A stretch of 64,000 nt of DNA from Massalongia carnosa (taxonomy: Eukaryota), in contig OZ287080.1 of NCBI GenBank assembly GCA_965645245.1, positions 806,001 to 870,000 on the forward strand, in the 5' to 3' direction. Below, one piece after another: positions 1 through 62,096 of this stretch (its first letter is position 1; every line of letters begins with the position of its first letter). The position numbers and the translations under genes were made by a program. The notes under the pieces were generated by a model, which was given only the letters and a program-made list of their open reading frames with translations, searched no databases and was not told where the DNA came from.

Positions 1-639
1 CTCACTGACTTTCAGGGTTTCAGGAGTTTTCATACAAGAGACCTCGTTCTTGCGTGATTCGACGGTTTTCAAGGACAGGGACGAAGCGGACTCAGGAGTC
101 CCTTCAGATGGATCAGGAAGGCCAAGAATGACAAGAGGGACGTGTTTATTCTCTAAACACTCCTGGAAACAGTACGTGGACGAGAAGGTCAGGGTATTTT
201 CAGTCCAGCTGACGGAGGGGTCATGAATTTGAAGCCACTTGACTCCCAGGACGACAGGATAATGACCCAGTTGGGTAACTAAGAACGAGCCTTGCTCGGA
301 ATGACGGTTTATTCGCATCCTTGACTTGATCAGATGAGTAAGTTTTCCGGCCGCCGCGGGGCGACCATCGACTACTTCGAGGATACGAGGACGGACAAGA
401 GGGGTGAAAGGCAGGGAATTTTTTCGCGCGAAGGATGAATCAATGAATGCGTAGCCCGAGGCACCGCAATCAATCAAAGCATGGGTGTGTATAACTCGAT
501 TTTCCACAGAGAGTGCTATAGATATGACACAATGTCTACCGTCTAACGAATCTTCTGAGAGAGAAAAGGCTGAAATCGACACAGGGACCCCTTCTGAACG
601 TCTTCGGGGGCGACTTAGCCCGAAGACGACGCGTTTTCC
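1..639 (-). CDS. pol: Pol N-terminus (aspartic protease), reached by -1 frameshift; truncated by window edge
   Basis: Minus strand near 421-490 reads THALIDCGASGYAFIDSSFARK; overlaps gag end at slippery GGAAAAC (633-639). Confidence 0.85.
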
Positions 640-15112: not shown

Positions 15113-16206
15113 AAAAACTTTCGCAATAGATTCTACCCATCTTTCTCATTCATTTGAGCCTCTCTTGAGTAAAAACGCACAAGAATTGGGTACGGTAGAG
15201 CTCCTTTAAGGCTCCTGCAGAGTTTTTCTGCTGGTCGCATTATTCCAACTCACTCCAAAAAACGCCACCTAAAATTTACAAAAAAAAATCAAAAAACATC
15301 TACGATTCCATCGAAAATCGCTCAATTTTCGATATCTCTTCGATTTTATTGTCGCATAGATCTTATTTATTATCACTGAAATCATCAACAAAAAACACTT
15401 ACTGTCGCGTTACTGTATACCTGTTGTCGTCGTGTCAAAATCTTTGAAGTTCATTTTCATATTTAAGGTTTCTGGTACCTGCGCAAGCAGTATATTACTT
15501 GCATATTCAGTGCATATTTCGTGCAAAAGTTTATTTTAGGTTTTCTTGTTTACTATCGAACGGCCAGACCAACAATCTACTTTTGGATATCCATTTCTCA
15601 ACATTTGACGACCTGCTGAAAGGAAGGGGAAAAAAGTCTGGAATAGGGTTATATCAAAGGCCCTACTTCAGCCTAATCAGAATAGGAGGTCCCTATTTTC
15701 TATATCGTACTTGATTTTATTTTTGATTAAAAAGTACTAAAATTATCCTATTTGATTAAAATTTTCATTATTTTCAACTACAGTAGTGTATGGTAAAGGG
15801 TTAAATCAGACTTAATGCCTAAGCGAGGAACGGTCTACTTTAACCCGATTAGGATTTATTTGACTTGTTATTGTCAATTAAATAGGAATAGGAAAGAAAG
15901 AGTTATTTGACAAGTAAATCGGTATAATATCTATTTTGACTAGTACGTCTGGGGAACGTCAGAATAAACTATTTGGTGGTGATAAAAGAGATTTAGAAAA
16001 GGCATGTTCAACCAGGTAATCAACCCGGTAGCACACTCGGCACTCCCTAGAACTAGACGATTATTGGCGAGACCACCCCCCGAGGCCCCCCACCTAGAAA
16101 TTTATCGGCCCGCCCAAGTCCCCCCCCGGGTCCCCCCCAAAACGACTCTCCCGCGCCATCTTCAGTAGCCATGATTGGGAGCTCACCCCCATCCGAGGAG
16201 TTTATA
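15113..16206 (+). mobile_element. TAATG-family LINE copy C: 5' UTR and ORF1 start
   Basis: Similar to reverse complement of the leaders at 25152-26027 and 42861-43757; ORF1 SSPPSEEF continues as IESMDQSGKFSS at 44677. Confidence 0.88.
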
Positions 16207-16968: not shown

Positions 16969-19482
16969 AATCCACGAATCACTTATGCACAAATTATACT
17001 AGAAGTGGGGCTCTGCTACAGTCGTACGACCATTTATCGGGCACTCAAACTGTATATTTTTTTTATTTATTCATTAAGTGTATTCAACCTAAGGTTATGA
17101 CACTAAACTATTTTAAGATATGGTTTTATTTTACAAATAAATCAACCCTTTATAACCCAACTATGTATCGTCAATATTGCCCCGTTTTTACTCCGTGTTA
17201 GTAACAACCTTTAGTAATCGAAATATCGATTTTAAAATTTGTTTTTGTAAAGCTCGTAAATATTCCAGCATAAATCATTTCTAATTTTACTGTTCGATCT
17301 CTCCCCAACCTCCCGTTTCGATATTTTCGTCATCGAGCTGACCTAGCATCCATTTTCTAGTCGCGATTTTGTTATCAACAATAAATTTAATCAAAATATT
17401 ATTTCCGATCCTAGTATTAAACAACATTTTTAAAGTAATTGTTGTATCGATATTTTGTTTCATGTTTAGGATTTCATTTGAATAATGTATGCAATTCATC
17501 AATAAGTGTTCTGGCGTTTGACGTTCGTTGCAGCGCCCTGTGCATTTTGACGAATTATAATCTTACAATCGGTGCAGATATGATCGAAAATAACCGTGTC
17601 CGAATTTCATTTGCATAATAGTTGCAAATATTAATTTAGAACAATTATTCGACAGATAATAAAAACTCGATTTGCCCGGCTGCATTTCGAATTTCTCATA
17701 GTATTTGCCTTTTGACTTGCATTGTTGCCATTGATTCGCCCATGTGGCTAACATATTTCGATTTATTTGACCCTTCACATAATCAAATGTTATTATCGAA
17801 GACTCGACTAGGATTCGACTATGTCCCGCTTTTGCTGCTTTATCTGCAATTTCATTTTCGACGATTTTCGAATGACTAGGAATCCATTGTAGAACCACCT
17901 GATAATTGTTTCCGAATAAGCATTTCGAGAATTTTCGAATTTGTTTTGCGTAAGTATGATTTGTCAAGTTCTGAATTTCGTTTATCGCGTTTATGCTATC
18001 GGAAAAAATCCAAATCGTTTTTTCCAAATTGAAGAGAATATTCGCAATTGTCAATTTGTATGCCCATTTTATTGCTTGTAGTATCGCATACAGTTCAGCG
18101 TTTTTAACGCTTAACTGTTTGTTTAATTTCCAGCTTTTCGAAATCGTATGATGTTTGAGGAGACAATCTTTTTCGATAAAACGATTGAAGTTATCGGTGA
18201 GATTGTTCCAATTTCGCGTAATTGGTGCAAATGTGACAGCGGAAGTTGAAAACTCGGTTTTTGATCCATCGGTATAGAGTAAAATTTGCGATTTATTGGC
18301 GTTTATAGATTGAATTTTTGATAAAGTCGAATAATAACTTGACTTTGCTGTTTCTTTTGATCTTTCGATTTGGAACTTGATTTTACAAGACGGCTTCCAT
18401 GGTTTGATGAAATTATTTACTGATTCCAATTCATCAGTTTTGTGAACTATATCCGAAACGGAATGAAGAATACGGATAAGCTGACTAGGATGAGGTTTAC
18501 TCGATTTTTTCTCGTCTTCGTTCCATTCAACATATCTGTTGTTCCATAAACTAGTGTCAAAACCGATGTTTTCAAATTTCACCGTATAGGTACTGGGAAT
18601 TCTTTGAAAAATAGGATTATTTTCGGCAATCTTCAATAATCGAATTGCGTATTTTTGATTTTTCATCAACAATCGTAGCTTGGCTGGTAAAATATGCGAT
18701 TCAATTTCCATCGCCTGAACAGGCGTCGTTTTGAATGTGCCTAAAATCTTTCGAATCATTCGATTTTGCAGCTTCTGAAATAGCTTTTCATATTTCTTTT
18801 GACCGTTATACCAGATTTCTGAGCCATAGTCCGAAATAGGAATAATGCATGACAAATAGAGCTGTCTGCATGCAGTTGGCTTTAGTCCCCATTCAGACTT
18901 CATCAAATTTGGAATTGCGAAAAACGATCGATTTGCAGAAGCAATTCGCGTTTCGACGTGTTTTTTGTAATTTAGTTTTCGGTCTAACCAGACTCCTAAC
19001 CATTTGACAGAATTTTTCGGTTCTAGTATTGTCCCGTTTGGTAATTGCACTTTGTCTTTTGATGCATTTCTTGACTTTTCGAAGTGAATCAACTCAGATT
19101 TGTCGTCAACAAATTTGACATTATTCGTTGCGGCCCAATCAAAAGCTGTTTTGACGATAATTTCGATTTCTTTGCAATTCTGTGTGGCAGTTTTATTTTC
19201 GACATATATTGCAACATCGTCTATAAAGCTAGGTGAATGAGCATTGTTTATTTTTTTTTATTTATTCATTAAGTGTATTCAACCTAAGGTTATGACACTA
19301 AACTATTTTAGGATATGTTTCTATATTACAAATAAATCAACCCTTTATAACCCATCTAAGTATCGTCAATTTTTCCCCATTTTTACTCCGTGTTAGTAAC
19401 AACCTATAGTAATCGAAAAATATCGATTTTACAATTTATCTTTGTAAGTTCTTAACTGTTTCAGCATAAATCGTTTCTGATT

Positions 19483-22400
19483 TTACTGTTCGATCTCTCC
19501 CCAACCTCCAGTTTCGAAAATATCGTCATCAAGCTGACCTAGTATCCATTTTCTAGTCGCGATTTTGTTATTGACAATGAATTTAATCAAAATGTCATTT
19601 CCGATTTTTGTATTAAACAACATATTCAAGTTGATCGTAGTATCGATGGTTTGTTTCATGTTTTGAATTTCATCGAAATAGTGAATGCAATTCAATAACA
19701 AGTGTTCTGGCGTTTGTCGTTGATTGCATCGATTTGGGCATTTTGACGAATTATAATCTTTCAATCGATGTAAATATGATCGAAAATAGCCGTGTCCGAA
19801 TTTTAATTGCATAATAGTAGCAAATATCAATTAGGAACAGTTGTTTGATAAATAATAAAATCTCGATATGGCAGGTTTCATTTCGAATTTCTCGTAGTAT
19901 TTGCCTTTTGATTTGCATTGTTGCCATTGATTCGTCCATGTGGTTAGCATATTTTGATTTATTTGATCTTTTACATAATCAAATGTTATAGCCGAGGACT
20001 CGACTAGGATTTGATTATGGCCCGTCTTTGCTATTTTGTCTGCAATTTCGTTTTCGGTAATATTCGAATGACTCGGAACCCATTGCAAAATCACCTGATA
20101 ATATCTTTCAAATAAGCGTTTTGCGAGCTTTCGAATTTGTCTTGCGAAAATATGATTTTTCAAGTTCTGAATTTCGTTTATCGCGTTTATACTATCAGAA
20201 AAAATCCAAATCGTTTTTTCCAAGTTCGATAAAATAATAGTATTAGACAATTTATAGACCCATTTCATTGCTTGTAAAATTGCATGCAGTTCAGCATTTT
20301 TAATGCTTGACTGTTTGCTTAATTTCCAGCTTTTCGAAATCGTATGATACTTGATCAGACAATCTTTTTCGATAAATCGATCAAAATTATTGATAATACA
20401 ACTCCAATTCCTCATAATTGGCGCAAATGTGACTGCAGACGTTGCAAATTCGATTTTTGATCCATCCGTATAAAGTAAAACTCGGGATTTATCGGAGTTC
20501 ATTGATTGAATTTTGGATAAGGTCGAATAATAACTTGATTTAGCAGATTCCTTTGTATTTTCGATTTGAAATTCGATTTTGCACGGCGATTTCCAAGGTT
20601 TAATAAAATGATTTGATTGTTCAAACTCATCAGTTTTGTGAACTATGTCGGAAACGGAATGAAGAACGCGAATGAGCTGACTAGGATGTCGTTTATTTGT
20701 TTGTTTTTCGTCTTCGTTCCATTCGGCATATTTGTTGTTCCATAAACTAGTGTCAAAACCGATGTTTTCGAATTTTATCGAATATGTATTTGGAATTCTT
20801 TGACAAATAGGGTTATTTTCGGCAATCTTCAATAATCGAATTGCGTATTTTTGATTTTTCATTAATAATCGAAGTTTAACTGGTAAAACATGTGATTCAA
20901 TTTCCATCGCCTGAATAGGTGTGGTTTTGAAAGTTCTTAAAATCTTTCGAATCATTCGATTTTGTAGGTTCTGAAATAGTTTTTCATATTTCTTTTGACC
21001 ATTATATCAAATTTCTGAGCCATAGTCCGAAATAGGAATAATGCATGACAAATAGAGCTGTCTGCATGCGGTCGGTTTCAGACCCCATTCGGATTTCATC
21101 AAATTCTGAATTGCAAAAAACGATCGATTCGCAGAAGAAATTCGCGTTTCGACGTGTTTTTTGAAATTCAGTTTCCGGTCTAACCAGACGCCCAACCATT
21201 TGACTACATTTTTCGGTTCTAGTACTGTCCCGTTTGGTAATTCCAATGTTTTCGATACATTTCTTGTCTTTTCGAAGTGAATCAGCTCGGATTTATCGTC
21301 ATCAAATTTGACATTATTCGATGCGGCCCAATCAAAAGCTGTTTTGACTATGATTTCGATTTCTTTGCAATTTTGTTTTGCAGTTTTATTTTCGACATAT
21401 ATTGCAACATCGTCAATAAAACTGGGAGAATGTGCATTAAATTTCATTCTTATTTTCGGAAACAAGTGACGAATGTAAATCAGAAATAGAATAGGCGAGA
21501 TTGGTGAACCTTGTGGAATTCCTGATTCGACATAATATGTTTTGCTTTTGTTTTCATCGAATATCAAATTGATCGATCGTTTTGTCATGAAATGCTTGAC
21601 CCATTGAATTATTATGCGAGATAATTTCAGCTTTTTCATGACATTTAGCAGTTGATTAATCGAGACAAAGTCAAATGCGCCTTTGACATCGAGTAATAAA
21701 CAGGATAGAACTCTTTTATTTCGATTCGCAATTTCGATATCATGAACGACGTTCATTACTGCGTCAATTGCAGAATGATTTTTGCGTCCGCCCATCTGTT
21801 CGATATCTAGTAAATTCGAATTTTCGCCGAAGTAGGCTAGTCGATTTGTAACGATTTTCTCAGCAATTTTACCAAGACAATTTAGTAATGTGATAATTCG
21901 ATATGATTTTGGTAGCGAATAGTCTGATTTATTAGGTTTTTTCAGAACTGCACCGAGTCCGGTCCGCCAGCATAACGGGTGATAACCGATTCGAATGAAT
22001 TTCGAATAAATCATGAAAAACACGTTTTTCAACGATTGAAACGATTTTTGAACAATTGTAAAATTGATTGCATCAGGTCCACATGCTTTCTTCGGATTAA
22101 ATAAACTAATCGCATTTTTCAACTCGTTTTCGGTCAAATCTGGCCAATTATCATCATTTACGCTGTCTTGATTTGATAAATCTTCCTCATTATCGTCAAT
22201 AAATGGGTTTTTTGTATACATTGCTGACACAAATGCATCGCATTTGTCATCAAACTGAACATTTAGCTTGTTTTCATGTAGAATCGGCGGTATTTTTTCG
22301 AATATTCGCGGTTTAGTGTATTTATACGCGGTAAATACATCTTTATTTGCTGCATTTTCAAGAAAAGTCAACCATGTTTGTTGTTTTGCTTTTCGAATTG

Positions 22401-23493
22401 CATGAAAATACTCGATTCGACTATGTTTAAACGTCCGATGACTAAAATCGGACGGATAATTCTTCCATTCTCGACGATGTCTGCACATGGTTTTTCGAAG
22501 TTCAGTTAAATCATGCGACCACCAATTTTTCGATTTTGCACAAATTTTCGTTTTCGGAATAAACATTTCAGCCGCGTTTTTGATAACGTTTTGCAAATAT
22601 ATCGCTGATTCGTCGAATTGATGATTATTCAATAAACTTTGAACTTGTGATTCGTAGATGGTTGAATTTTCGTCTAGATACTTCGCGAATTTATTCCAAT
22701 CAGCTTTATTGCAATTGTATTTATTCGATAATGCGGTTGCATGTGACGTCAAGTTTTTGAAAGATGCGATTAGTTCAAATCGGATGACTTCAGGATCAGA
22801 ACCTGTGACTGCGTTTTCATCGATTGACCAATTTGTAATTGCATTTTCGATTTTAGAATTTGCAAAAGTTAAATCAATAACAGATGAAGAACTTCCAGAA
22901 TGGGCGTAGTATGTACATAAGTCAGGTGTGTTTATCAAGCTACACCTGTTTAATTTCAACCATTCGACAAGATTTTCTGATCGAATTGCTTGTTGAATTT
23001 TCGAATTCCACCAGTTATGATGTGCATTGAAATCTCCACAGATGACGAATTGATCAGTTGATTTTGGTTGTAATTGGATTAAAAGTCGATCGATCGTGTA
23101 TGTTTCTCGATCACTTTGACTTTTTTCGTTATAAATATTGAAAATCTGCACTTTTCGAACTTCATCAATTGTAATTTCAATAATTTGCATATCGGAATCG
23201 TCAATAAGATCCGTTCTAGGCGTGCATTGCAGTTTGGAATTGCCATTTGTGACAAATATAGCTACTCTCGAGCGATAAGTCGCTATTTTTGGCATAATAC
23301 ATGTAAATGACGGATGTGATATTGTTTTTTGATCTCGTGTCCATGGTTCCTGAAACAAAACAATATCAATTTGATTTGATAAAGCATATTCCAAACACGA
23401 TATCATTGCATTTGTTGACTTTGCACAATTATGTTGAATAAATTTAACATTTTGTGTATTTTCGATGTTTGTCAACGAATGCTGTCCTGCCAT
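19483..23493 (-). pseudogene. LINE A1 ORF2 (APE, RT, RNase H, zinc finger) with two in-frame stops
   Basis: QEPW, GDFNAHH, QGSPISP, FIDD, YTDGS, WVPSH; stops at 21007-21009 and 19831-19833 in one frame. Confidence 0.93.
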
Positions 23494-25151
23494 TACAAAG
23501 CGGCTAATTCGTCAGTCGATTTTCGAACATTTAACGATATAACCATTTCACAATTTTCATCATTGGATTGATGATTCTTGTTGCAATTCGCGCATTTGAC
23601 GACGGCGTGTGCACAAGCAATTTTTGACTTGCATGTTGTGCATTCATGATTGCGTGTTTCATGGTTTTGAGCACATATGCTGCATTTCGCTTGACTTTTG
23701 CATTGATAATGCTTGTGTCCAAATTTTTGACAATTAATGCATTGTGTGTTTGGACGAACGGAGGTAAATATTTCCGTGTCACAATGTCGGCCCGCGATAT
23801 TGACTCCTTTTAACGCGTTCAAGGCCATATTTCGATCATTGAATGTCAAAACAACGGATGATTTGATCTTGTTATGACGATCACGTGCTAGCCATCTGGG
23901 AACATCGCATAATTGCATGTTCGAATTGAACTTTTGAATTTCGTCTTGCAAATATTGCATGTTTTCATCAAATGTTGCAATATTTACACCGTGTGCGATG
24001 ACTTTGAACCACGATTCGTCCTTTCGAACTGTTCGTGGGTCGAATAAATGCTCCCATATTGATTTATTGTTCAATAAATCTTCAGCAGTGTTATCAGGAC
24101 TAGTAGTCAGAACGATGTTTTGACCCGTTTTGGACTTTTCGACCGTGTTAACAACGATAGTCAATTTCGCGTCTTTAAAAAGCGAATTGATTTGGTTTCG
24201 AAGCAACAGTGAATCGATATCGCCGATTTGAGCTTTCGGTGTGATTATCAATCGTCGAGATTTGATCGCCTTGAAATCGTCAGTATTATCGAATTTATTC
24301 GCATTCGAATTATTGTTGTTGTTCTTGTTTGTTTTTTTGGATCGAGGAACGGTAGTCCAATTTTCGGAATTGACAGTCGCTTTTCCGAGCATTTGGCTCC
24401 ATGTTCTAGCTGTATCGTTGACCTGCGGCCCTGGGACTCCGGCGGTTTCGCTCCGAATTTCTGGGTTGACGTTTTGAGTCAAATTCGAATTTCCATTTGA
24501 ATTTCCCTTCGATTTTGTCTGTATAGGATGCACCGATTGTCTCTTTGTTTCTGGAATTTGGCTAGTTTGTTCTAGCACCCTATTCAATTTCCAATCAATC
24601 ATTTCTAACGTTGCTTTTGGCTTGATCGATTTCTTTGCCAGTAGAGAATTGACGTGATCGATGACCATAGCCGTTTCGGGGTTTTGATCTATTACGAATG
24701 ACTCTAATAATGCATTTTTTGCCGTATTCAATAGTTGAATCGATTTTGATCGATTGATGACTTCTTGACTCTCAATCGAATGTTCGTCAAATGTTCGTCT
24801 TTTGTTGCGTTTAATTGGTGGACTCAGTCGAATATCAGAATTCAATGATGGCATGGGCAGATTGGTACTGAATTCACCAGATGGCGCGACAAAAGGTTTC
24901 GTTTTTGGGGTGGGTGTGGACGGTGCGGACGAAAATTCTCGCGTTTGGTCCATGGCCTCCGTGGATTCTACGGTTAGGGGGTTGCTCCCAATTATCGCTA
25001 CCGAAGATGGCGTGGGGGAGTCGGTTCGGGGGGGGCACGGGGGAGTACTCGGGGGGACCCATATATGTTGTGGAGGGGGGCCTGGGGGAGGAGTTGTTGG
25101 TATCAATCGATTTGGTCTATGACCTATCGGGTTAAATCTTCGATTGAGCAT
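23493..25151 (-). CDS. LINE A1 ORF1 (552 aa, gag-like, Cys/His knuckles)
   Basis: Intact ORF; Pro-rich N-terminus, CINCQKFGHKHYQC, CSICAQNHETRNHEC, CANCNKNHQS. Confidence 0.92.
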   Translation of the reverse strand: MLNRRFNPIGHRPNRLIPTTPPPGPPPQHIWVPPSTPPCPPRTDSPTPSSVAIIGSNPLTVESTEAMDQTREFSSAPSTPTPKTKPFVAPSGEFSTNLPMPSLNSDIRLSPPIKRNKRRTFDEHSIESQEVINRSKSIQLLNTAKNALLESFVIDQNPETAMVIDHVNSLLAKKSIKPKATLEMIDWKLNRVLEQTSQIPETKRQSVHPIQTKSKGNSNGNSNLTQNVNPEIRSETAGVPGPQVNDTARTWSQMLGKATVNSENWTTVPRSKKTNKNNNNNSNANKFDNTDDFKAIKSRRLIITPKAQIGDIDSLLLRNQINSLFKDAKLTIVVNTVEKSKTGQNIVLTTSPDNTAEDLLNNKSIWEHLFDPRTVRKDESWFKVIAHGVNIATFDENMQYLQDEIQKFNSNMQLCDVPRWLARDRHNKIKSSVVLTFNDRNMALNALKGVNIAGRHCDTEIFTSVRPNTQCINCQKFGHKHYQCKSQAKCSICAQNHETRNHECTTCKSKIACAHAVVKCANCNKNHQSNDENCEMVISLNVRKSTDELAAL

Positions 25152-26044
25152 AGTGTTTTTGCCTTTGCAATATCCCTTTTATCGCCACCAAATAATTTAT
25201 TCTGACTTTCCCCGGACGTACTAGTCAGAATAGAATTTACACCTGTTTGTTTACTGGTCAAATGACTCTTTCTTTCCTATCCCTATTTATTTGACTATAA
25301 CGCGTCAAATAAATCCTAATCGGGTTAAAATAGACCGTTCCTCGCTAAGGCAGTAAGTCTTATTTAACCCTTTACCAGACACTACAATAGGTGAAAATAA
25401 TGAAAGTTTTTTTTTTGCTTTTTTCAATAAAGATAAATTTTAATGCAATGTAAGACAATAGGAGACTTCCTATTCTGATTAATCTGAAACAGGACCTTTG
25501 GTATAATCCTATTCCAGACGTTTTTCCCCTTCTTTTCAGTGATCTGTTGACCGGCCGTTCAACGAAGATCTATAAAGCCGAAAATGGAATGTGCAAAAAT
25601 TATACGTGAAATATGCTATGAAAATTTGTGCTTGCGGAAGTTCCCGTAACCTTAAATGAGGAATGAACTTTAGAAGACTCTGACGTCGCGACAGTTGTTG
25701 TACAGTCCCGCGAGAGTAGATAATTTTTGTAGATAATTTTTATAGTAATAATTGAAGGTCATGCGACAACAGAACAGAAGAAAACAAGAAAAAAGAGCGA
25801 TTTTTGGTGAGGTTGTTGGTATTTGCTGTTTTTTCCAACTTCTAGAGCGCGCTTTATCACGTCGGTCGCGTGCGACCAGCAGAAAAACTCTGCTGGAGCT
25901 TTGCTAGATCTCTCCTACACTCAATCTGAGAGCGTTTTAACTCTGGAGGAGCGCAAATGACTGAGAAATAGAGGCTCAATTGACTGTTAAAGTTATAGTG
26001 TATCAAAAGTTGCGGTACTTGTGTTTCTTGTTGTTCAGGCCTTC

Positions 26045-26956
26045 GATAATTTTTTGCAAATGTATCGCTGATTCGTCGAATTGATGATTATTCAATAAAC
26101 TTTGAACTTTTGATTCGTAGTTGATTGAATTTTCGTCTAGAAACTTCGCGAATTTATTCCAATCGGCTTTATTACAATTGTATTTATTCGATAATGCGGT
26201 TGCATGTGACGTCAAATTCTTGAAAGATGCGATTAGTTCAAATCGGATGACTTCATGATCTGAACCTGTGACTGCGTTTTCATCGATTGCCCAGTTTGTA
26301 ATTGCATTTTCGATTTTGGAATTTGCAAATGTTAAATCAATAACAGATGATGAACTTCCAGAATGGGCGTAGAATGTGCATAAATCAGGTGTGTTTATCA
26401 AACTACATTTGTTTATTTTCAACCATTTGACTAAATTTTCTGATCGAATTGCATGTTGAATTTTCGAATTCCACCAGTTATGATGTGCATTGAAATCTCC
26501 ACATATGATGAATTGATTAGTTGATGTAGGTTGCAATTTGATTAAAAGTCGATCGATCGTGTATGTTTCTCGATCATTTTGACTTTTTTCGTTATAAATA
26601 TTGAAAATCTGCACTTTTCGAACTTCATCAATTGTAATTTCAATAATATGCATATCGGAATCGTCAATAAGATCCGTTCTAGGCGTGCATTGCAGTTTGG
26701 GATTGAATTTTGTGACAAATATAGCTACTCTCGAGCGATAAGTTGCTATTTTCGGCATAATGCATGTAAATGACGGATGTGATATTGTTTTTTTATCTCG
26801 TGTCCATGGTTCCTGAAACAAAACAATATCAATTTGATTTGATAAAGCATATTCCAAACACGAAATCATTGCATTCGTTGACCTTCCACAGTTGTGTTGA
26901 ATAAATTTGACATTGTGAGTATTTTCTATATTTGCCAACGAATGCTGTCCTGCCAT
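26045..26956 (-). pseudogene. LINE A2 ORF2, endonuclease part only
   Basis: MAGQHSL...GDFNAHH...GSDHEVI; homology ends near 26045 where A1 begins. Confidence 0.9.
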
Positions 26957-28530: not shown

Positions 28531-29003
28531 GATTTAATAAATAAATCGATATGCCTTTTCAATATCCCTTTTATCACCACCAAATAATTTATTCTGATGT
28601 TCCCCGGACGTACTAATCAGAATAGAAATTTACACCAATTTATAGGTCTAACGACTCTTGCTTTCCTATCCCTATTTATATGACAATAACTCGTCAAATA
28701 AATCCTAATCGGGTTAAAATAGACCGTTCCTCGCTTAGGCAGTAAATCTTATTTAACCCTTTACCAGACACTACAATAGTTGAAAATAATGAAAGGTTTT
28801 TTTTTGCTTTTTTGCGATAAAAATAGATCTAAGGCAAGGTAAGATAATAAGAGACTTCCTATTCTGATTAATCTGAAATAGGATCTTTGGTATAATCCTA
28901 TTCCAGACGTTTTTCCCCTTCTTTTCAGTGATCTGTTGACCGGCCGTTCAATTGAGATCGATAAAGCCTAAAATGGTATATGCAGAAATTATACGTGAAA
29001 TAT

Positions 29004-31169
29004 CCCTCTCGCTGTCATTCTAGCACCCCCCCCCCAAGCTAATCTATATTGGACTAGCTTCCGCACCGATGAGTCATCAGAACATTAGTTTTCTCTAGAG
29101 TGTTTGCGCGTTTGTTTACTTTTCAAAGAATACTATTCGGTCATTCAATCAGAATAAATCACATAAATTACTATTCTTCTAGCTTCGGAATTGATATTAT
29201 AAGTATGACGATCAATGAAGAAGAAATCCCGAGTGTATCAGACAAATCTCCCATTTCAGCGAAGCAACATAAAATAAATCGCAAAAGAAGTGTTCGGGAT
29301 ATTTTAATCGACCTTCCCCCTATTTCCTCAAAATATACCCCCATTCGGGTTGAAAACAGGCCTTTTGTTCCGCTCGTTGAAAACGATTCTCGAAATCCTT
29401 TGGGATTATTTCGGTTATTTATAACAAGGCAGCATTGTCGTATCATCGCAAATCATACCAATATCAAGGCAAATAACTACATGGAAAAGGAGAAGGAGAA
29501 CAATCATCGGGTTTGGACTGACACTACTGACTCGGAAATTGAGGTTTTTTTGGGCATATTAATTCTTATGGGACTCGATCATCTACCTGCTACAGAGGAT
29601 TATTGGAATCAACGTCCTGACAAACCAGTTATCATGCCTATTCTGTCCGCGATGTCGCTTGGTCGATTTCAACAAATCAAACGATTTTTGAAAATCTATA
29701 ATGGACAGACTGAGCCTATCGGACTTGGTCAAGGACCTGATTGGTGGAAGAAACTGGAACCGTTGGCTACTGATTTCCGAAAGACTTCATTGAAACATTG
29801 CAGACCAGGAAGTATGATATCTATAGATGAACAGCTGGTGTTATTCAAGGGCCGTTCTCGACATACCTTGCAGATTACTACAAAAAGTGCCCATAAAGGA
29901 TTTAAAATCTACAGTCTCTGTCAGGATAATTATCTGTTGTCATTTATGTTTGCCTCGAAGAGTAGCAGAATAAGTGAATTGAAAACAGTCAGACAATTGG
30001 GATTTTTGCCAAAAGATAAACTAACTCCTAGTGCTTTGCTAGTGATTCAGTTATGTAAAGAACTTCCATCCTCACTGAATTATCATCTTTTCTGTGATAA
30101 TTTCTTTACTAGTACGAAATTATTCAAGGCACTTCGATCAATCGGAATAGCTGCCAGTGGAACTGCTAAAAAGGGCTCGGGCTTTCCAGAAGAATTGTTG
30201 GCCATACGGGACGTCACTTCAAAAGGAAAAGACTGGGGTCTTCAGGCCCATATGGTGGTCGACGATAAGGTGCTTTGTATGGGCTGGGTGGATAATAATG
30301 GTGTGCAGTACATGACCACCGGTCATTCTCCTCAGGACTTGTACGAAATGCACTATATAAATCCGCACAAGAGATATGGAATTCCCGAGACCTCTCTTTA
30401 ACCTATTGTATCGTATTTCCCATCAACTCTGGCTCACTCCATTCCCTTGCTCAATCAAGAGGTTCAACGGCCCTTAGGATTACCGATACCAGCCCCAATC
30501 AAAGAATATAATCTTCATATGGGGGGATCGGATGGAAACGCTCAGCAACGAGCGATTTACTCATACAATCGTCGAACGGATCGTTACTGGTGGCCTTTGT
30601 TCATTTTTATTTTAGATGCAGCCGGATTGAATGCCTATAAACTTTACTCGCTGAACTCTTTCGATTCCGAGGAGATAAAATTTACTCGTTCTGAATTTCT
30701 TCGTCGGATTGCTCTTGAACTGATATCAAATCAAGCGGGCATCAGGTCCGGCCCATCAAAGATAAGCATCAATACCACGATTGATGCTTTAGTACCATCT
30801 CCCATTCATCATTCCGTTCGTCTTGAAGGCAGAAAAAGATGTGTGCAATGTAACGCCGAGAAAAAACGACCTTCAAAGCGGAAGGGAGAGCCACTGGCTG
30901 AAATAAGTGTCGATGGGCGTAAAAGAAGGCGAAGGGGTGCTCAGACTATATGGGCTTGTGGAGGATGTAATCCAATCAGGCCCTGCTGTAAGAAAGCCAG
31001 CTGTTGGGAAGCTATTCATATGATAGGGGACGAGTAAATAGGTATCTGATACTCCGTACAACTTCTTGTGAATAGGAATAACATTGATTGGTCAAAAGTT
31101 TAAGGTTTAACGCTTTCTAACCAACAATGGTTTAGCTTGGGAGGGGGTGCTAGAATGACAGCGAGAGGG
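29004..31169 (+). mobile_element. Complete piggyBac-like transposon (PB-2, 2166 bp) in the A2 5' UTR
   Basis: TIRs CCCTCTCGCTGTCATTCTAGCACCCCC and GGGGGTGCTAGAATGACAGCGAGAGGG; flanks ATAT and ATAC; LINE leader continues on both sides. Confidence 0.95.
29205..31037 (+). pseudogene. piggyBac transposase with one premature TAA (30399-30401)
   Basis: SIDEQ, FCDNFFT, HMGGSD catalytic motifs and Cys-rich C-terminus; the two ORF halves share a frame; PB-1 has Gln at the stop position. Confidence 0.9.
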
Positions 31170-32897
31170 ATACTGTGAATATTTGAGCTTGCGGAAGTTC
31201 CCGTAACCTTAAATGAGAAATGAACTTCAAAAAAGTTAGTCGTCGCGACAGTTGTTGTACAGTACCGCGACAGTAGATATTTTTTGTAGATAATTCTTGT
31301 AGTAATAATTGAGGGTAATGCGACAACAGAACAGAAGAAAGTGAGAAAAAAGAGCGATTTTTGGTGATATTGTTGGTATTTGTTGTTTTTTATAACTTCT
31401 TGAGCGCGCTTTATCACGTCTGTCGCGTGCGACCAGCAGAAAATCTCTGCTGGAGCTTTGCTAGAGCTCTCCTACACTCAATCTGAGTCCGTTTTTGCTC
31501 TGGAGGAGCTCAAATGACTGAGAAAGAGATGTTCAATTGACTGTGAAAGTTTTAGAGTATCAAAAGTTGCGGTACTTGTGTTTCGATAGGTGGTCTTTGG
31601 TGTGAGCGGTGTGAATGAGCATTGAATTTCATTCGTATTTACGGAAATAAGTAACGAATATAAATCAGAAATAGAATTGGCGAAATAGGTGAACCTTGTG
31701 GAATTCCAGATTCGATAGAGTACGTTTTGCTTTTGTGTTCATCGAATATCAAATTGATCGATCGTTTTGTCATAAAATGCTTGACCGATTGAATAACTAT
31801 GCGAGATAAATGCAGCTTTTTCATGACATTTATCAATTGATTAATCGAAACAAAGTCAAATGCTCCTTTGACATCGAGTAATAGACATGATAAAACGTTT
31901 TTGTTTCGGTTTGCGATTTCGATATCATGAACGACGTTCATTACCGCATCGATTGCAGAATGATTTTTACGTCCGCACATTTGTTCGGTATCTAACAAGC
32001 TCGAATTTTCGCCGAGGTAGGCTAGTCGATTAGCAACTATTTTCTCCGCAATTTTACCAAGACAATTCAGTAAGGTAATAATTCGATATGATTTTGGCAG
32101 CGAGTAGTCTGGTTTATTAAGTTTTTTTAAAACAGCACCGAGTCGTGTTCGCCAACATAACGGGTGATAACCGATTTGTATAAATTTAGAATAAATAGTA
32201 AAAAACACGTTTTTCAACGGTTGAAACGATTTTTGAATTATTGTGAAATTGATTGCATCAGGCCCACATGATTTCTTTGGATTAAACAAACTAATCGCAT
32301 TTTGCAATTCATTTTCGGTTAAATTCGGCCAATTGTTGTCATTTTCGCTGTCTTGATTCGTTAAATCTTCAATATTATCATCAGTGAACGGGTTTTTTGT
32401 GTACATTGCTGACACAAACGCATCGCATTTGTGATCGAATTGAACATTTAACTTATTTTCATATTTAATAGGTGGTATTTTTTCGAACATGCGCGGTTTA
32501 GTGTATTTATAAGCTGTAAATACGTCTTTATTCGCTGCGTTTTCGAGGAAAGCCAACCAAGTTTGCTGTTTCGCTTTTCGAATTGCATGAAAGTACTCGA
32601 TTCGACTATGTCTAAATGTTTGATGACTAAAATAGGACGGATTATTCTTCCATTCTCGACGATGTCTACACATGATTTTTCGAAGTCCGGATAAATCTTG
32701 CGACCACCAATTTTTCGATTTTGCGCATATTTTTGTCTTCGGAATAAACATTTCAGCCGCGTTTTTGATAACGTTTTGCAAATATAACGCTGATTCATCA
32801 AATTGATAATTGTTCAATAGACTTTGTATTTGGGACTCGTAGTTTACTGCATTTTCGTCTAGAAACTTCAAGAATTTATCCCAATCGGCTTTATTGG

Positions 32898-36800: not shown

Positions 36801-37691
36801 CACGCAGAGCCTCAGGGTACCATTTGCCTTAGGCACGAAGAGAATAGGAGCTCCAGCTGGTGAGGTAGATGGCCGGATAAACCCATTAGCCAGGTGAGCA
36901 TCGAGGTAGGCCCTTAGCACTGTGAGCTCTGTTTCTGATAGGCTATAAATAGGTCCATATGGAGGCTGCTTTCCATCCACGAGGTCGATCGCATGATCAT
37001 GTAGCCCGTGCTCTGGTAGCTTGGCTGCACTATCTTCCGAAAAGACATCTGCGAAATCCGTATAAGCCTCAGGGACCTTGATTTCTTGTACCTTCACTGA
37101 GGCTATTCTAGCTCGACGGCTCGAATGGATGTTATCTACACCTAGCGCCTTAGCATGGACCACGTAGGTCGGTGTATCTTCTGATAACGCCTCTTCTATG
37201 AAGACTTCTGGTTCTATAATCTCTATCCGATGAGTAGTCATCAGGGCCGATAGAACGCTTAGTTCTCGCCAATTCAGGGTCCTTGCTGACCAATCGATAT
37301 CGGGATTGGCTAGCTGCAGGAATGGCATGCCCAACACGATATTATGAGGTATATCTGCTATTAGGAATGTTTCCTCAAAGAAACGTTGCTGACCTAATTG
37401 ATCAGTTACCCCGAACACCAACAGACCCATGCCATGTGTCATGACTTGCTGGTGATTAATAGCTTCCAAACTGACGCTGGAGTGTAACACTGTCAGAGCG
37501 CATATATTTGCGTAAGCTCTAGAAATAATGTTAACTTCACTTCCGCTGTCAATTAGTGCTTTTGCTGTTTCTTTAGCGTGTGTTATTTCGTACTCTATGC
37601 AGGGTGCGACTTCCAATGTCTTAGGACTTGCCGATGCCTCTTTGATAGTAGTCGCCGGTAGGGAGGCAGCAGCGGCGACTATGCTTTTTTT
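33804..37691 (-). pseudogene. pol: Pol of Gypsy-3 (PR, RT, RNase H, IN, chromodomain) with one TAG at 34239-34241
   Basis: LIDSGS, YLDD, ETDAS, HDDPLAGHFG...CDVC, GQTERQN; frame continues past the TAG as RPVGTQAYELELP...IHPVFHVSLL then chromodomain YEVE...YLVHWKGY...TWEP. Confidence 0.93.
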
Positions 37692-38833: not shown

Positions 38834-38933
38834 GTTGACGATAAATAGGTTGAATTGTTTGGACGGTAGGTGTGATAGGATTGAACTATCAACAGTCGGA
38901 CCAAGCTATCCTAAGATATGGAGCTTTTAGAAT

Positions 38934-42664: not shown

Positions 42665-44676
42665 TCGGTGTGGACGGGGCTGATGCATATTCGCGAGTTT
42701 GATCCATAGGTTCAAGACGGGGAGAGCTCCCTATCAACGCCACCGGAGATGGTCCGGGGGAGTGTCGGGGGGGGACCGGGTAGGGGGTCGATAGGGGGAC
42801 GGGACCGGCTGGGGGTGGTGTCCTTGGTATATTCCTGCGGTTCATTACCGCGTTAAACATGGATTTATAAATAAATCGATGTTGCCTTTGCTATATCCCC
42901 TTTATCGCCACCAAATAATTTATTCTGACGTTCCCCGGACGTAATAGTCAGAATAGAGTTTTTACGCCGATTTACTGGTCTAAAGACTCTTGCTTTCCAA
43001 ACCCTATTTATTTGACAATAACAAGTCAAATAAATCCTAGTCGAGTTAAAATAGACCGTTCCTCGCTTAGGCAATAGATCTTATTTAACTCTTTACCTTG
43101 ACACTACGATATATGGAATATAATAAGAATTTTACGATCGAACAGAAAAAATTTTTTTTTTTTTTAAAAAATGTTTTTGATCCAGAAATAAAAATCAAGT
43201 ACAATGAGAGAGAGGAGACTTCCTATTCTGGTTAGCCTGAAACAGGGCCTTTGGTTTAACCCTATTTCAGACGTTTTTCCCCTTCGTTTCAGCAGATTGT
43301 TGGTCGGCAGTTCAACGAAAATCGAAAAAACCCAAAATGGAATAGTGTATACGGTACCGGTAACCTTAAATTTCAAATGAACACCAAGAAGTTTTGTTGT
43401 CTCGAGAACAGGTTGTACAGTTACGCGACAGTGATGATATTTTGTAGATAATTTTTGTGATAATAGATGAGATCTATGCGACAATTAAACCGAAGAAATA
43501 TCGAAAATCGAGCGATTTTTGACGTTGTTGTTGGTGTTTTTGTGTTTTGTAGATTTTTTGGACGCGCTTTTTGGTGAAGGGGTCGACAGACCGCGAGGAA
43601 AACTCTGCAGGAGCAGTGGAAGAGCTCTCCTGTACCCAATTCTGATGGGTTTTAGCTTCTGGTAGGCTCAAATGAATGAGAAGAATGAGGAGAATAAGTT
43701 GGGAAAGTTTCAGTATATCAAAATATAGGGTACCGATGTTTTGGTGGTTGGCTTTTTGCTGATGACGCGTTTGATGACTCAAACTGTATAGTTTAACTAA
43801 CTGGGTGGCTAAAAAAACGACCTTTATTGACGCCTGAGGTGGCCAAGAAACGATTGGATTGGTGCATGCTGCGGCGTGAGTAGACTTTTGAGCAGTGGTT
43901 AAGAGTTATATGGTCAGATGAGTGCTCGGTAGAAAAGAGGTCAGGAAAACAGCGTCTGTGGGTGTTCAGATTGCCGAAAGAAAAATGGAATAAAGAGATG
44001 ATACAACCTGTGCCCAAAGGCAAAGGAGTCAGTGTCATGGTCTGGGCAGCTTTTTGGGGAGATGACAGGTCAGATCTTTACAAATTAGCTCGTGATTTTG
44101 CTGTGAAGAAGATGGGGTATTCGGCGAACTCATATATGGAATTATGGAACGATAATCTGCTTGTAATTTGGCAACCGGCCTCATTTTCATGCAGGATAAG
44201 GCACCTATACATAAGGCTAAAAAGGTGATGGAGTGGTTCAAAGAGAGCGGCATAGAGGTCATCGATTGGCCCCCCTATTCACCTGATTTAAATCCCATCG
44301 AGCACGTTTGGTATGTGCTCAAAAAACTCGTCTATCAAGTCAACCCGAACATAGATTTAGTGATCGGCAGTGATGAAACTGTTCGTGAGGTACTTGGGAA
44401 AGCGTTAGAAGAAGCCTGGACGTTGATAGATATGAAAATTAGGAGGAGGTTAATAGAGAGCATGAATAGGAGGATAAAAGCGTGTATAGCGTCGGAAGGA
44501 TGGTATACTAAATATTAAAAATCGGTTTTTGGGGGAGTTCTAGTTTAGTATGTATGTAATCATTATGTAAAGTTTCAAGATATTTCAGCAATCGTGACGT
44601 GGTTGATTGTTGATTGAATAGAATGATTGAAATGTTGGTGGGGTGCGGGGCCGCAGACTTTTGGCCTAGTACTATA

Positions 44677-57700: not shown

Positions 57701-60700
57701 TTGTAATTGAGTTTTCGATTTTAGAATTTGCAAATGTTAAATCAATAATAGATGAAGAATTTCCTGAGTGAGGGAAAAATGTATATTGATCAGGCGTATT
57801 TATCAAACTACATTTGTTTAATTTTAACCATTTGACTAGATTATCTGATCGAGTTGCATTTTGAATCTTCGAATTCCACCAGCTATGATGTGCATTGAAA
57901 TCTCCACATATGACAAATTGATCAGTTGATATAGGTTGATATTTAACTAAAAGTCGATCGATTGTATATGTTTCTCGATCGTTTAGACTTTTTTCATTGT
58001 AAAGGTTAAAGATCTGCACTTTTTGAACTTCATCAATTGTAATTTCGATAATTTGCAGATCAGTATCGTTAATAAGAACCGTTCTAGGCGTGCATTGTAA
58101 TTTTGGATTGCATTTTGTAACGAATATAGCTACTCTCGGCCGATAAGTCGCTATTTTCGGCATAATACATGTGAATGACAGATGGGAAATTGTTCTTTGA
58201 TCTCGCGTCCATGGTTCCTGAAATAAAACAATATCAACACGATTTTATACTGCATATTCCAGACACAAAATCATTGCATTCGTTGACTTTGCACAACTAT
58301 GTTGAATAAATTTGACATTTTGTGTATTTTCGATATTTGTCAACGAATGTTGTCCCGCCATTAACCAGGCATTAATTCATCATTCGATTTTCTAGGATTT
58401 AGCGAGATAAACATTTCGCAACCTATATCGTTCGATTGATGATTTTTGTTGCAATTGACGCATTTCAGAATTGCATGTGCGCATGCGATTTTAGACTTGC
58501 ATGTTGTGCATTCATGATTATGCGTTTCATGACTTTGTGCGCATATATTGCATTTTGCCGGACTTTTGCATTGATAATGCTTATGTCCAAATTTCTGACA
58601 ATTAATACATTGCGTGTTTGGACGAACGGAAGCAAATATTCCCGTGTCACAATGTCTACCCGCGATATTCACGCCTCTTAACGCGTTTGACGCTTGATTT
58701 TGATTATTGAAAGTCAAAACTACAGACGACGTGACTTTATTTTGACAATCCCGAGCAAGCCATCTTGGTAAATCGCATAGTTGCATATTCGAATTATATT
58801 TTTCGATTTCGGTTTGCAAATATTGCTTTTATTATCGAATAATGAGATATTTACTCCGTGTGCTATGACTTTAAACCAGGATTCCTCTTTTCGAATTCTT
58901 TGTGATTCGAAAATGTGTTCCCATGAAGATTTATTTTTCAACAATTCTTCGGCATTGTGTCAGGACTCATGGTGAGAACGATATTCTGACCGGTTTTAGA
59001 CTTTTCAACAGTATTGACGATAATGTTTAAATTTGCGTTTTTTAATAGCGCGTTAATTTCATCACGCAACTTCATAGAGTCGATTTGAGCGTCAAAATTT
59101 TTCGGTGAAATCACGAGTCGTCTGGCCTTGATTGCATCAAATCGATCGACTTTGTTCGAATTATGATTCGAACTTTTCCTTTGAATAGTAGTCCAATTTT
59201 CGGAGTTTTCGGTTGCTTTTCAAAGCATTTGACACCATGTACCGGTTGTGCTAACATTGTTACCAGAGACCCCGATGGCTCCTTTGCGAATGGTCTGATT
59301 TTCGATAATTGAATTTCATTCAATTTAACAACAGGTTTTTGGATTTTTGGACCATTCTTTCTGTAGTGGAGTCGTTTGTTGTTGTGATGTTTACGAGGAA
59401 AGATGACTAGTTTGATCAAGTACTATGCCCATTTTATAGTTAATCATATCTAAGGATGTTTGTAAATTGATTGATTTTTTCGAAATCAACGAATTAACGT
59501 TGTCAATTACGATAGCCGTTTGTGGATTTTGGTCGAGTACAAATGATTGCAATAGTGCTTTTTTGGCCGACTTTAGAAGCTCAATTGAATTTGCCCGATT
59601 GATCGCTTCTTGGCTATCTCTCGAATGTTCGTCAAATGTGCGTCTTTTATTTCGTTTGATTAGTTGGCTTGATCCAATGTTTAAGTTCAATGAAGGCATC
59701 GGCAAGGTAGTGGAAAATGGACCCGATGGGAATTTCGTTGTCTTTGGTGTCGGTGTTGACGGGGCTGATGCATATTCGCGAGTTTGATCCATAAGTTCAA
59801 GACGGGGAGAGCTCCCTATCAACGCCACCGGAGATGGTCCGGGGGAGTGTCGGGGGGGGGCCGGGTGAGGGGTCGATAGGGGGGCGGGACCGGCTGGGGG
59901 TGGTGTCCTTGGTATATTCCGGCGGTTCATTACCGCGTTAAACATGATTTTATAAATAAATCGATGTTGCCTTTGCTATATCCCCTTTATCGCCACCAAA
60001 TAGTTTATTCTGACGTTCCCCGGACGTACTAGTCATAATAGAGAGTTTTTACGCCGATTTACTGATCTAAAGACTCTTGCTTTCCAAATCCTATTTACGA
60101 GTTAAAATAGACCGTTCCTCGCTTAGGCAATAGATCTTATTTAACTCTTTACCTTGACACTACGATATTTGGAATATAATAAGAATTTTACGATCGAACA
60201 GAAAAAATTTTTTTTTAAAAAATGTTTTTGATCCAGAAATAGTACAATGAGAGAGTAGGAGACTTCCTATTCTGGTTAGCCTGAAACAGGGCCTTTGGTT
60301 TAACCCTATTTCAGACGTTTTTCCCCTTCGTTTCAGCAGATTGTTGGTCGCCAGTTCAACGAAAATCGAAAAACCCAAAATGGAATAGTGTATACGGTAC
60401 CGGTAACCTTAAATTTCAAATGAACTCCAAGAAGTTTTGTTGTCTCGAGAACAGGTTGTACAGTTACGCGACAGTGATGATATTTTGTAGATAAATTTTG
60501 TGATAATAAATGAGATCTATGCGACAATTAAACCGAAGAAATATCGAAAATCGAGCGAATTTTGACGTTGTTGTTGGTGTTTTTGTGTTTTGTAGATTTT
60601 TTGGACGCGCTTTTTGGTGAAGGGGCGGACAGACCGCGAGGAAAACTCTGCAGGAGCAGTGGAAGAGCTCTCCTGTACCCAATTCTGATGGGTTTTAGCT

Positions 60701-60815
60701 TCTGGTAGGCTCATATAAATAAGAAGAATGAGGAGAATATGTTGGGAAAGTTTCAGTATATCAAAATATAGGGTACCGATGTTTTGGGGGTTGGCTTTTG
60801 GGCGACGTGTTATTG

Positions 60816-62096
60816 ATTTTCTTTGGCCGACTTTAGAAGCTCAATTGAATTTGTCCGATTGATCGCTTCTTGGCTATCTCGCGAATGTTCGTCAAATGTT
60901 CGTCTTTAATTTCGTTTGATTGGTGGGCTTGATCTAATATTTAAATTCAATGAAGGCATCGGCAAGATAGTGGAATATTGACCCGATGGGAATTTCGTTA
61001 CCTTTGGTGTCGGTATTGACGGGGCTGATGCATATTCGCGAGTTTGATCTTTAGGTTCAAGACGGGGAGAGCTCCCTATCAACGCCACCGGAGATGGTCC
61101 GGGGGAGTATCAGGGGGGGACCGGGTAGGGGGTCGATAGGGGGGCGGGACCGGCTGGGGGTGGTGTCCTTGGTATATTCCGGCGGTTCATTACCGCGTTA
61201 AACATGATTTATAAATAAATCGATGTTGCCTTTGCTATATCCCCTTTATCGCCACCAAATAGTTTATTCTGACGTTCCCCGGACGTAATAGTCAGAATAG
61301 AGAGTTTTTACGCCGATTTACTGGTCTAAAGACTCTTGCTTTTCAAACCCTATTTATTTGACAATAACAAGTCAAATAAATCCTAGTCGAGTTAAAATAG
61401 ACCGTTCCTCGCTTAGGTAATAGATCTTATTTAACTCTTTACCTAGACACTAAGATATTTGGAATATAATAAGAATTTCACGATCGAACAGAAAAAATTT
61501 TTTAAAAAATGTATTTGATCCAGAAATAAAAATCAAGTACAATTAGAGAGTAGGAGACTTCCTATTCTTGTTAGCCTGAAACAGGGCCTTTGGTTTAACT
61601 CTATTTCAGACGTTTTTCCCCTTCGTTTCAGCAGATTGTTGGTCGGCAGTTCAACGGAAATCGAAAAAACCCAAAATGGAATAGTGTATACGGTACCCGT
61701 AACCTTAAATTTCATATGAATACCGAGAAGTTTTGTTTTCTTGAGAACAGGTTTTACAGTTACGCGACAGTAATGATATTTTGTAGAGAATTTTTGTGAT
61801 AATAGATGAGATTTATGCAACAATTAAACCGAAGAAATATTGAAAATCGAGCGATTTTTGACGTTGTTGTTGGTGTTTTTGTGTATTGTAGATTTTTTGG
61901 ACGCGCTTTTTAGTGAAGGGGCGGACAGACCGCGAGGAAAACTCTGCAGGAGCAGTGGAAGAGCTCTCCTGTACCCAATTCTGATGGGTTTTAGCTTCTG
62001 GTAGGCTCAAATGAATGAGAAGACTGAGGAAAATAAGGTGAAAAGTTTCAGTATATCAAAATATATTGTACCGATGTTTTGGGGGTTGGCTTTTTG
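60816..62096 (-). mobile_element. Subfamily B 5' fragment (B3): 5' UTR and ORF1 start, directly upstream of B2
   Basis: Near duplicate of about 59560-60800; ORF1 ATG at 61205. Confidence 0.9.

Follow-up and report, generated by a model that had tools for sequence, protein, structure and literature searches.

R2, a retrotransposon without long terminal repeats (LTRs), carries 5′ untranslated regions (UTRs) that form hepatitis delta virus (HDV)-like ribozymes, and its 5′ RNA contains a conserved pseudoknot and regulates integration through binding of the R2 protein (PMC12203849, in the part available). In L1Tc, a long interspersed nuclear element (LINE) of Trypanosoma cruzi, an HDV-like ribozyme termed Pr77 occupies the first 77 nt and acts as a promoter too (PMC3185411 and PMC3383444, each in part). 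Here, a LINE leader was analysed that lies at positions 25152-26027 of a 64,000-nt stretch of contig OZ287080.1 from Massalongia carnosa (the window), and it is likely that the half of this leader next to the first open reading frame (ORF1) holds a functional, conserved and structured RNA domain in the sense transcript. The putative domain resembles the R2 5′ RNA as a structured, conserved, cis-acting region 5′ of the coding region of a non-LTR element, but the present element has two ORFs, a 5′ terminus of its own and a leader that is AUG-free and appears to be scanned by ribosomes. The domain also differs in being without sequence or Rfam similarity and without a ribozyme match, and protein docking is suggested here by family specificity only. 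With Pr77, as the available parts of those two papers describe it, the domain would have in common that it is conserved, lies 5′ in a LINE and functions in cis at the RNA level, yet it starts ~450 nt into the leader, extends over ~420 nt and fits no ribozyme model.

The Psi hairpins of HIV-1 (human immunodeficiency virus type 1) bind Gag. The HIV-1 leader, which is long, structured and immediately upstream of the gag AUG, is nevertheless scanned by ribosomes (PMC3130279, in part). The 5′ UTR of HIV-1 with Psi offers the favoured functional analogy to the present leader, both being long and structured with several conserved-loop hairpins beside a Gag or Gag-like ORF; a LINE has no capsid packaging, primer-binding site or TAR, however, and the analogy is limited to nucleation of a ribonucleoprotein (RNP). 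In Ty1, cis-acting structured RNA controls replication (PMC3592414, in part). The parallel here is a structured RNA that acts in cis in a retroelement, that of Ty1 being fungal, but Ty1 is an LTR element, its structure is located in the GAG coding region and has its role in the priming of reverse transcription, and the sequences are unrelated. The human LINE-1 (L1) 5′ UTR is comparable in its length of ~900 nt and its position upstream of ORF1, but is not homologous. It is known chiefly as an internal sense and antisense promoter; Dmitriev et al. are said to have found in 2007 that, long as it is, its translation is cap-dependent and proceeds by scanning, and to our knowledge no conserved multi-hairpin domain beside ORF1 has been described in it. 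Cis-acting structured RNA in a retroelement leader is a well-known kind of element, and in the open-access literature searched no structured domain is described for the 5′ leader of a fungal or Tad1-like LINE.

A predicted RNA domain beside ORF1

The region 25152-26027 is the 5′ UTR of the LINE and its RNA sense is the minus strand, running from 26027 down to 25152. An earlier reading made from the letters alone (the sequence-only reading) had called the region a LINE 5′ leader, which was borne out by Pfam and blastn. Six leaders were found by blastn within the window, and these copies form two subfamilies that are ~70% alike, A (A1, used as the reference, and A2) and B (B1 to B4). RNAalifold was run on the six ORF1-proximal leader halves in an alignment of 545 columns and returned a consensus of 94 pairs. 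The sense consensus fold had an energy of −70.9 kcal/mol, compared with −38.7 ± 4.4 kcal/mol for 100 column shuffles in which the classes of gap and of conservation were preserved (z −7.3), and on the antisense strand the consensus gave −45.2 against −28.8 ± 4.2 kcal/mol (z −3.9). When A1 was folded alone (25152-25560), the sense strand gave a z of −3.67 with none of 100 dinucleotide shuffles as stable, and the antisense strand a z of −2.96. The stability of the consensus is clearly above chance. The distal 475 nt of the leader exhibited no excess structure (z −0.25), and within the 876 nt of the leader the predicted structure is confined to the half next to ORF1. Conserved structure had previously been proposed within the leader of ~900 nt; this now applies to a multi-hairpin domain of ~420 nt at its ORF1-proximal end and does not extend to the distal half.

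The predicted helices are listed in Table 1. S2 encloses the invariant AGCGAGGAACGGUC. The sequences quoted in the sequence-only reading were all present where it had placed them, and the motifs that it described as near-invariant were indeed so, GACCGTTCCTCGCT occurring in all six copies and CCCCGGACGTA in five of the six. It had given the letters of the + strand, whereas the RNA sense is minus, and had missed S5, the long-range closing helices and the near-absence of AUG. S5 is predicted to form on the sense strand only, its energy being −13.6 to −21.5 kcal/mol on that strand and −5.7 to −11.8 kcal/mol on the antisense. Seven of its 15 pairs never vary, five vary on one side only, one is changed on both sides and two are broken in single copies. 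The helix H5, which would surround S5, has an alternative in a local hairpin on the 3′ side (AAUAGGA/UCCUAUU, within 25460-25530), and the two are mutually exclusive. The S5 loop ACCAAA (25497-25502, sense) is complementary to the invariant UUUGGU (25187-25192) that is used for H4, therefore a loop-to-strand pseudoknot is possible; all positions of this candidate are invariant except for a C>U change in B2, which would give U·G.

The domain starts ~450-480 nt inside the leader and reaches to ~860 nt from the transcript's 5′ end. It contains no conserved open frame, the longest stop-free stretch being 27-76 codons and differing among the copies. A tRNA-like origin was looked for with ARAGORN, which returned 0 tRNAs, and the only monomer-type tandem repeat found was a 13-nt array of 2.7 copies at 25716-25749.

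Conservation was assessed among the copies and in sequencing run X1 and, like stability, exceeded chance. Across five copies drawn from both subfamilies (B3 was omitted because of its deletion), 94% identity was found over the 96 nt of the S2-S3 core, and A1 and B3 are 56-70% identical in the distal leader and 56-75% identical in the first ~1 kb of ORF1. A highly variable linker, rich in A and U, interrupts the conserved block. Fixed differences between A and B were present in 13 of 154 paired columns, in every case with the pair preserved, compared with 33 of 184 unpaired columns. Pairing was found in 97.3% of 552 cells; the 15 unpaired cells were each private to one copy, six of them in the decayed B2. 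The LINE family is extremely abundant in the sample of run X1, which yielded 2697 contigs on the leader (25100-26060) with summed word depths of 1e5-1e6. Among the 40 common X1 variants listed of 60, four lay in 25152-25545 and 35 in 25563-25953, a regional contrast that is not a precise ratio, as 20 further variant places lie outside these 40. Two of the four are in the S3 loop (25296 and 25302), one is at an unpaired position and one is a sense C>U opposite G.

Paired substitutions

The sequence-only reading had proposed that the stems are kept across diverged subfamilies by paired substitution. Two of its examples contain genuine double changes. S1 reads TATTCTGAC/GTCAGAATA in A1 (25198-25206/25224-25232) and TATTCTGAT/ATCAGAATA in A2 (28590-28598/28616-28624); the changes in this stem are C-G to U-A in A2 and C-G to U-G in B2, and it is broken in B3. 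The outer stem of S2 reads GGGTTAAA/TTTAACCC in A1 (25322-25329/25363-25370) and GAGTTAAA/TTTAACTC in B1 (43043-43050/43084-43091). This G-C to A-U change counts as one event, because B3 and B4 carry it as well as B1. B2 retains GGG/CCC; the sole variation in the inner stem of S2 is C-G/U-G, on the sense strand. S3 had been described as an 11-bp stem that keeps its arms while the loop varies, which is correct for the loop and for the arms in A1, B1 and B4, where the stem is perfect, but A2 and B2 have one mismatch each and in B3 a loss of 31 nt has removed most of the stem. The third example, GATC/GATC becoming GATT/AATC in B1, was rejected. Its letters are present, but the 3′ arm in the B copies lies one alignment column over, and the stem, of 4 bp, was not recovered by RNAalifold and overlaps a better long-range helix; it was not counted as covariation.

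Five pairs were altered on both sides, one in S1 (A2), one in S2 (B1, B3 and B4), one in S5 (A versus B) and two in H1 (B2), and they fall at five separate places on the tree of the copies. When the structure was kept fixed and the partners were shuffled, 1.7 ± 1.0 double-sided pairs were obtained; the observed five were reached by one of 500 shuffles and the observed covariation score by none of 500. In cross-validation of the fold, pairs predicted from A1 only were broken in B1 in 14 cases against 24.7 ± 3.3 expected (P = 0.0006), and the test was significant for A1/B1, B1/A2 and A2/B1. A bias resembling repeat-induced point mutation (RIP) was considered as a source of false compensatory transitions and rejected, the variants in X1 comprising 26 transition and 23 transversion places.

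Several results weigh against a selected RNA fold. Column-shuffled alignments that were folded afresh yielded 4.8 ± 2.3 double-sided pairs compared with the five observed (P = 0.51); paired changes are cheap to find because many columns share the A/B split among six related sequences. The copies number only six, are related and represent about four lineages, and six sequences are too few for R-scape. The same cross-validation was significant on the antisense strand as well (P = 0.0016) and is thus not strand-specific; comparisons with B2 showed no such signal (P = 0.13-0.82), and A1 against A2 showed a weak one (P = 0.075). The strand-symmetric count, in which G·U is forbidden, had few events to draw on, 5 to 6 of the G·U type versus 2 of the A·C type. 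Furthermore, the stem sequences are conserved far beyond the need of pure pairing, so that much of the signal could come from a constraint on the primary sequence or on the DNA. The covariation is weak and an excess over chance is not clear. The structure had been called covarying; its stability and conservation stand, and covariation lacks clear support as statistical evidence.

The element, its copies and their surroundings

The window is eukaryotic DNA and consists of a nest of transposons. ORF1 of the LINE is a stop-to-stop frame at 23493-25178 on the minus strand, open only from 25178. No Pfam family was found on ORF1 of copy A1, and its nearest clusters in the language-model Atlas were Ascomycota ‘Gag-like protein’ and hypothetical proteins (scores 0.93-0.95). 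The downstream frames matched Exo_endo_phos_2 (E 1.4e-18), RVT_1 (E 2.4e-35) and RNase_H (E 3.5e-11). The element has the features of an I/Tad1-like LINE with an apurinic/apyrimidinic endonuclease (APE), reverse transcriptase (RT), RNase H and a Gag-like ORF1, and is probably an I/Tad1-type LINE, likely fungal, Tad1 being a tentative clade name. The frame of ORF1 shares 19 nt (23493-23511) with that of ORF2, which is therefore presumably reached via frameshifting or reinitiation. The start of ORF1 (25000-25100) is rich in G-runs on the + strand (C-rich in the sense), encodes a low-complexity ORF1p N-terminus and is the least conserved 100-nt interval near the start when A1 is compared with B3 (60% identity, 20 gaps).

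A2, B1, B3 and B4 have a homologous 5′ terminus in common. Past their loose ends at 26027 and 26035, contigs of run X1 carry on with the ~16 nt that are found ahead of this point in A2 and then diverge, so A1 is without the first ~16 nt of the family leader. Six loci carry copies of the leader, with a 5′ terminus in common, so the leader in its entirety belongs to the RNA that is retrotransposed. A 14-nt junction sequence is present at the 5′ end of A1 (26028-26041), and at the insertion site of A1 in ORF2 of A2 (26028-26042 and 19245-19260) ~1.1 kb of A2 is missing (A1 coordinates 3464-4603). The leader of A2 is split by a piggyBac-like DNA transposon (29004-31169) with inverted ends and a DDE_Tnp_1_7 transposase frame at 29073-30401. 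Elsewhere in the window lies a Ty3/gypsy-type LTR element (34239-38905), whose gag has a zinc knuckle and whose pol comprises RT, RNase H and integrase; a further gag frame of a retrotransposon is located at 615-1946. Parts of the leader were present in 16 runs from 13 studies with differing organism labels, one of them a lichen metagenome. Runs X9, X10 and X11 gave 2-5 contigs each, covered the leader only in part and added no linked pair information.

Table 1. Positions of the predicted helices of the domain, of the coding frames of the LINE, of the leader copies in the window and of the leader core of a second LINE family (window coordinates unless a metagenome locus is named)
Feature	Position	Strand	Description
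Structured domain (predicted)	25171..25591	-	~420 nt; RNAalifold consensus; closed by long-range helices H1 and H4
H1, long-range closing helix	25171-25181 with 25580-25591	-	11 bp; spans ~400 nt; two double-sided changes in B2
H4, long-range closing helix	25185-25192 with 25535-25542	-	8 bp
S5 hairpin	25482..25519	-	15 bp (25482-25496 with 25505-25519); 8-nt loop; 4-5 G·U pairs
H5 helix around S5	25460-25465 with 25525-25530	-	AGGGGA/UCUCCU
H7 small hairpin	within 25380..25402	-	6 bp
S2 composite hairpin	25322..25370	-	outer 8 bp (25322-25329/25363-25370); inner 5 bp (25332-25336/25356-25360); tip 3 bp (25340-25342/25348-25350)
S3 hairpin	25285..25314	-	11 bp (25285-25295/25304-25314); variable 8-nt loop
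S1 hairpin	25198..25232	-	9 bp; 17-nt loop with near-invariant UACGUCCGGGGAA
ORF1 start codon	25149..25151	-	ATG on minus strand
ORF2	21007-23511	-	AP-type endonuclease and reverse transcriptase
RNase H frame	19831-21006	-	C-terminal to RT part
Copy A1 leader	25152..26027	-	blastn, junctions, ORF/Pfam; 876 nt; nested in ORF2 of copy A2; reference
Copy A2 leader, ORF1-proximal part	28552..29003	-	~90% identical to A1; remainder at 31170-31584
Copy B1 leader	42882..43741	-	71% identical to A1
Copy B2 leader	15142..16004	+	71% identical to A1; decayed; 5′-truncated or diverged
Copy B3 leader	59967..60705	-	68% identical to A1; 31-nt deletion takes out S3
Copy B4 leader	61226..62021	-	70% identical to A1
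Second-family core	L013 ~260-600, L049 ~90-410, L016 ~210-430, L017 ~210-430		within 1-kb upstream stretches

Relatives of the leader and the proposed role of the domain

Start codons are depleted from the leader on one strand. The six leaders contain 0-2 ATG per 855-904 nt, compared with 8-11 expected from a first-order Markov model or 14-16 from base composition, and the antisense count (CAT) is normal (11-15 observed, 13-15 expected). Relatives were collected as 80 metagenome loci that encode ORF2 at 32-52% identity. In the 499-1000 nt upstream of ORF1, no ATG was present in L001, L014, L017, L049 and L058, one in L016 and L018 and two in L013; with these relatives included, 4-16 ATG would be expected per leader and the antisense count is again normal, and the depletion looks like a clade-wide trait. 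Avoidance of AUG in the sense only is as cap-dependent scanning would predict for the entire leader and makes a classical internal ribosome entry site (IRES) unlikely. The several upstream AUGs or upstream ORFs typical of an IRES-type leader, in which scanning is not expected, are not seen with 0-2 ATG, and the leader is probably scanned by ribosomes. L016 and L017 carry, ~450 nt upstream of ORF1, a long imperfect tract of CTATT/TGCTATT-type short repeats which is also ATG-free.

The domain itself was confined to its own family in the searches performed. Using a profile of the leader, nhmmer detected none of the 80 relative loci, while all six window copies, as the positive control, were recovered at E < 1e-126. 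A covariance model of S2 and S3 recovered the six window copies only (next-best match E 1.1), and motif scans gave no matches in viral contigs and none in metagenome contigs. The same scan of genome contigs returned one 22-nt match, in an Enterococcus contig; with no flanking similarity and ~0.1 matches expected, this was attributed to chance. No Rfam family matched the domain. Lenient scans (E ≤ 10) of 25000-26200 (A1) and 42800-43850 (B1) found no ribozyme family, the best match being RT-14 in A1 only (26.6 bits and E 0.32, where 48.1 bits is the gathering score; absent in B1), and nothing in the whole window reached gathering score. A second LINE family, comprising L013, L049 and L016/L017, has a conserved leader core of its own with hairpins and many compensatory changes (alifold −64.8 versus −32.4 ± 4.8, z −6.7); of the 86 pairs in it, 15 show compatible variation on both sides. 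By blastn, this core has no similarity to the domain of the window. It lies ~400-640 nt upstream of the ORF1 AUG in L013, therefore closeness to the AUG is not required.

A role for the domain as a cis-acting docking or nucleation platform for the proteins of the element, in RNP assembly, is one which we would put at about an even chance. H1 and H4 would close a multi-branch fold that presents S5, H7, S2, S3 and S1 with their near-invariant loops. Scanning ribosomes would traverse the AUG-poor leader of ~880 nt, the domain not serving internal ribosome recruitment, and the Gag-like ORF1p and/or ORF2p may dock on the domain by sequence and shape. Such docking would nucleate an RNP on the RNA that encodes those very proteins, a role like that of Psi or the R2 5′ RNA. 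Conservation, an excess of predicted thermodynamic structure, a bias to the sense strand, AUG depletion and family specificity are what the analysis shows; the fold in vivo, the binding of protein and the identity of that protein are inferred. Conservation of loops and stems in sequence suggests specific recognition; the family specificity of the domain fits the fast-evolving ORF1p as the partner rather than shared host machinery, and the position of the second-family core away from the AUG favours docking over a translational role.

Control of translation was weighed as an alternative, the hairpins before the ORF1 AUG serving to tune or throttle scanning, to promote shunting or as an IRES, with the host translation machinery as the partner. 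The position of the domain is suggestive, as it ends ~20 nt before the AUG in A1 and 35 nt before it in A2 and the B copies; a stable S5 (−18 to −21.5 kcal/mol) would slow 43S scanning, and the AUG depletion shows translation shaping the leader. We nevertheless consider this explanation unlikely, since an AUG-free leader of 880 nt would be predicted by scanning and not by a classical IRES, the second-family core is distant from its AUG and the domain is family-specific, though the host machinery would be shared.

Quite unlikely in our estimation is a constraint on the DNA or the primary sequence, in which the region would be an internal enhancer or promoter, or protein-binding DNA, and the inverted repeats would be incidental or palindromic sites. 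The 28 bp of S1, S2 and S3 show one double change only between A and B1/B3/B4, Watson-Crick helices are alike on both strands, and the antisense strand also scored in both the stability test and the cross-validation, all of which such a constraint would accommodate. However, five inverted repeats within 420 nt, 8-15 bp in size and with spacers of 8-33 nt, together with the z of −3.67, are unlike clusters of transcription-factor sites, S5 needs its G·U pairs and is predicted on the sense strand only, and H1 bears two compensatory changes across its span of ~400 nt. The internal promoters known for such LINEs are located at the 5′ end; from that end of the present element, the domain is 480-860 nt downstream.

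That the domain has no function, and that its hairpins and few paired changes arose by chance in a slowly evolving or recently shared (e.g. recombined) segment, we regard as very unlikely. The re-folded shuffles do match the observed number of double-sided pairs, the copies are six and related, and recombination between the subfamilies could make one segment of the leader seem conserved. This explanation does not account for the z of −7.3 against column shuffles, for paired columns that bear half the fixed differences of unpaired ones, or for a family-wide variant density much lower than in the distal leader (among the 40 variants listed of 60); the variable A/U-rich linker inside the conserved block, moreover, argues against simple recent transfer of one segment. 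A self-cleaving ribozyme that processes the transcript (HDV-like, hammerhead or other), an option raised in the sequence-only reading, is barely credible, having only the precedent of R2 and L1Tc, whose ribozymes lie at the 5′ terminus, in its favour, as the lenient scans of the two copies scored no self-cleaver, the element has its own conserved 5′ terminus with the domain well away from it, and internal cleavage would remove the 5′ 480 nt that are in fact retrotransposed.

RNP docking, as favoured above, may extend beyond this family. The window family and the family of L013, L049 and L016/L017 are unrelated in leader sequence and each appears to have a structured domain, which underlies a broader and rather unlikely proposal: that LINEs with APE, RT and RNase H (likely fungal, Tad1-like) generally have long, AUG-free, scanned leaders with a family-specific RNA domain that co-evolves with the Gag-like ORF1p and acts in Psi-like nucleation. 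Should the domain reflect sequence conservation only, it would be an ordinary finding. As it stands, it would offer a concrete candidate, amenable to mutation, for a 5′ signal in RNP assembly or control in a LINE of very high copy number, and the AUG-free leaders across the clade provide a simple, testable statement on the translation of ORF1. The cis-preference of LINEs is usually explained by co-translational binding alone, and the specific RNA signals known are mostly those of R2 and those that ‘stringent’ LINEs carry at the 3′ end. If Psi-like nucleation proved general, LINE cis-preference would have a sequence-specific RNA component and would not be purely co-translational.

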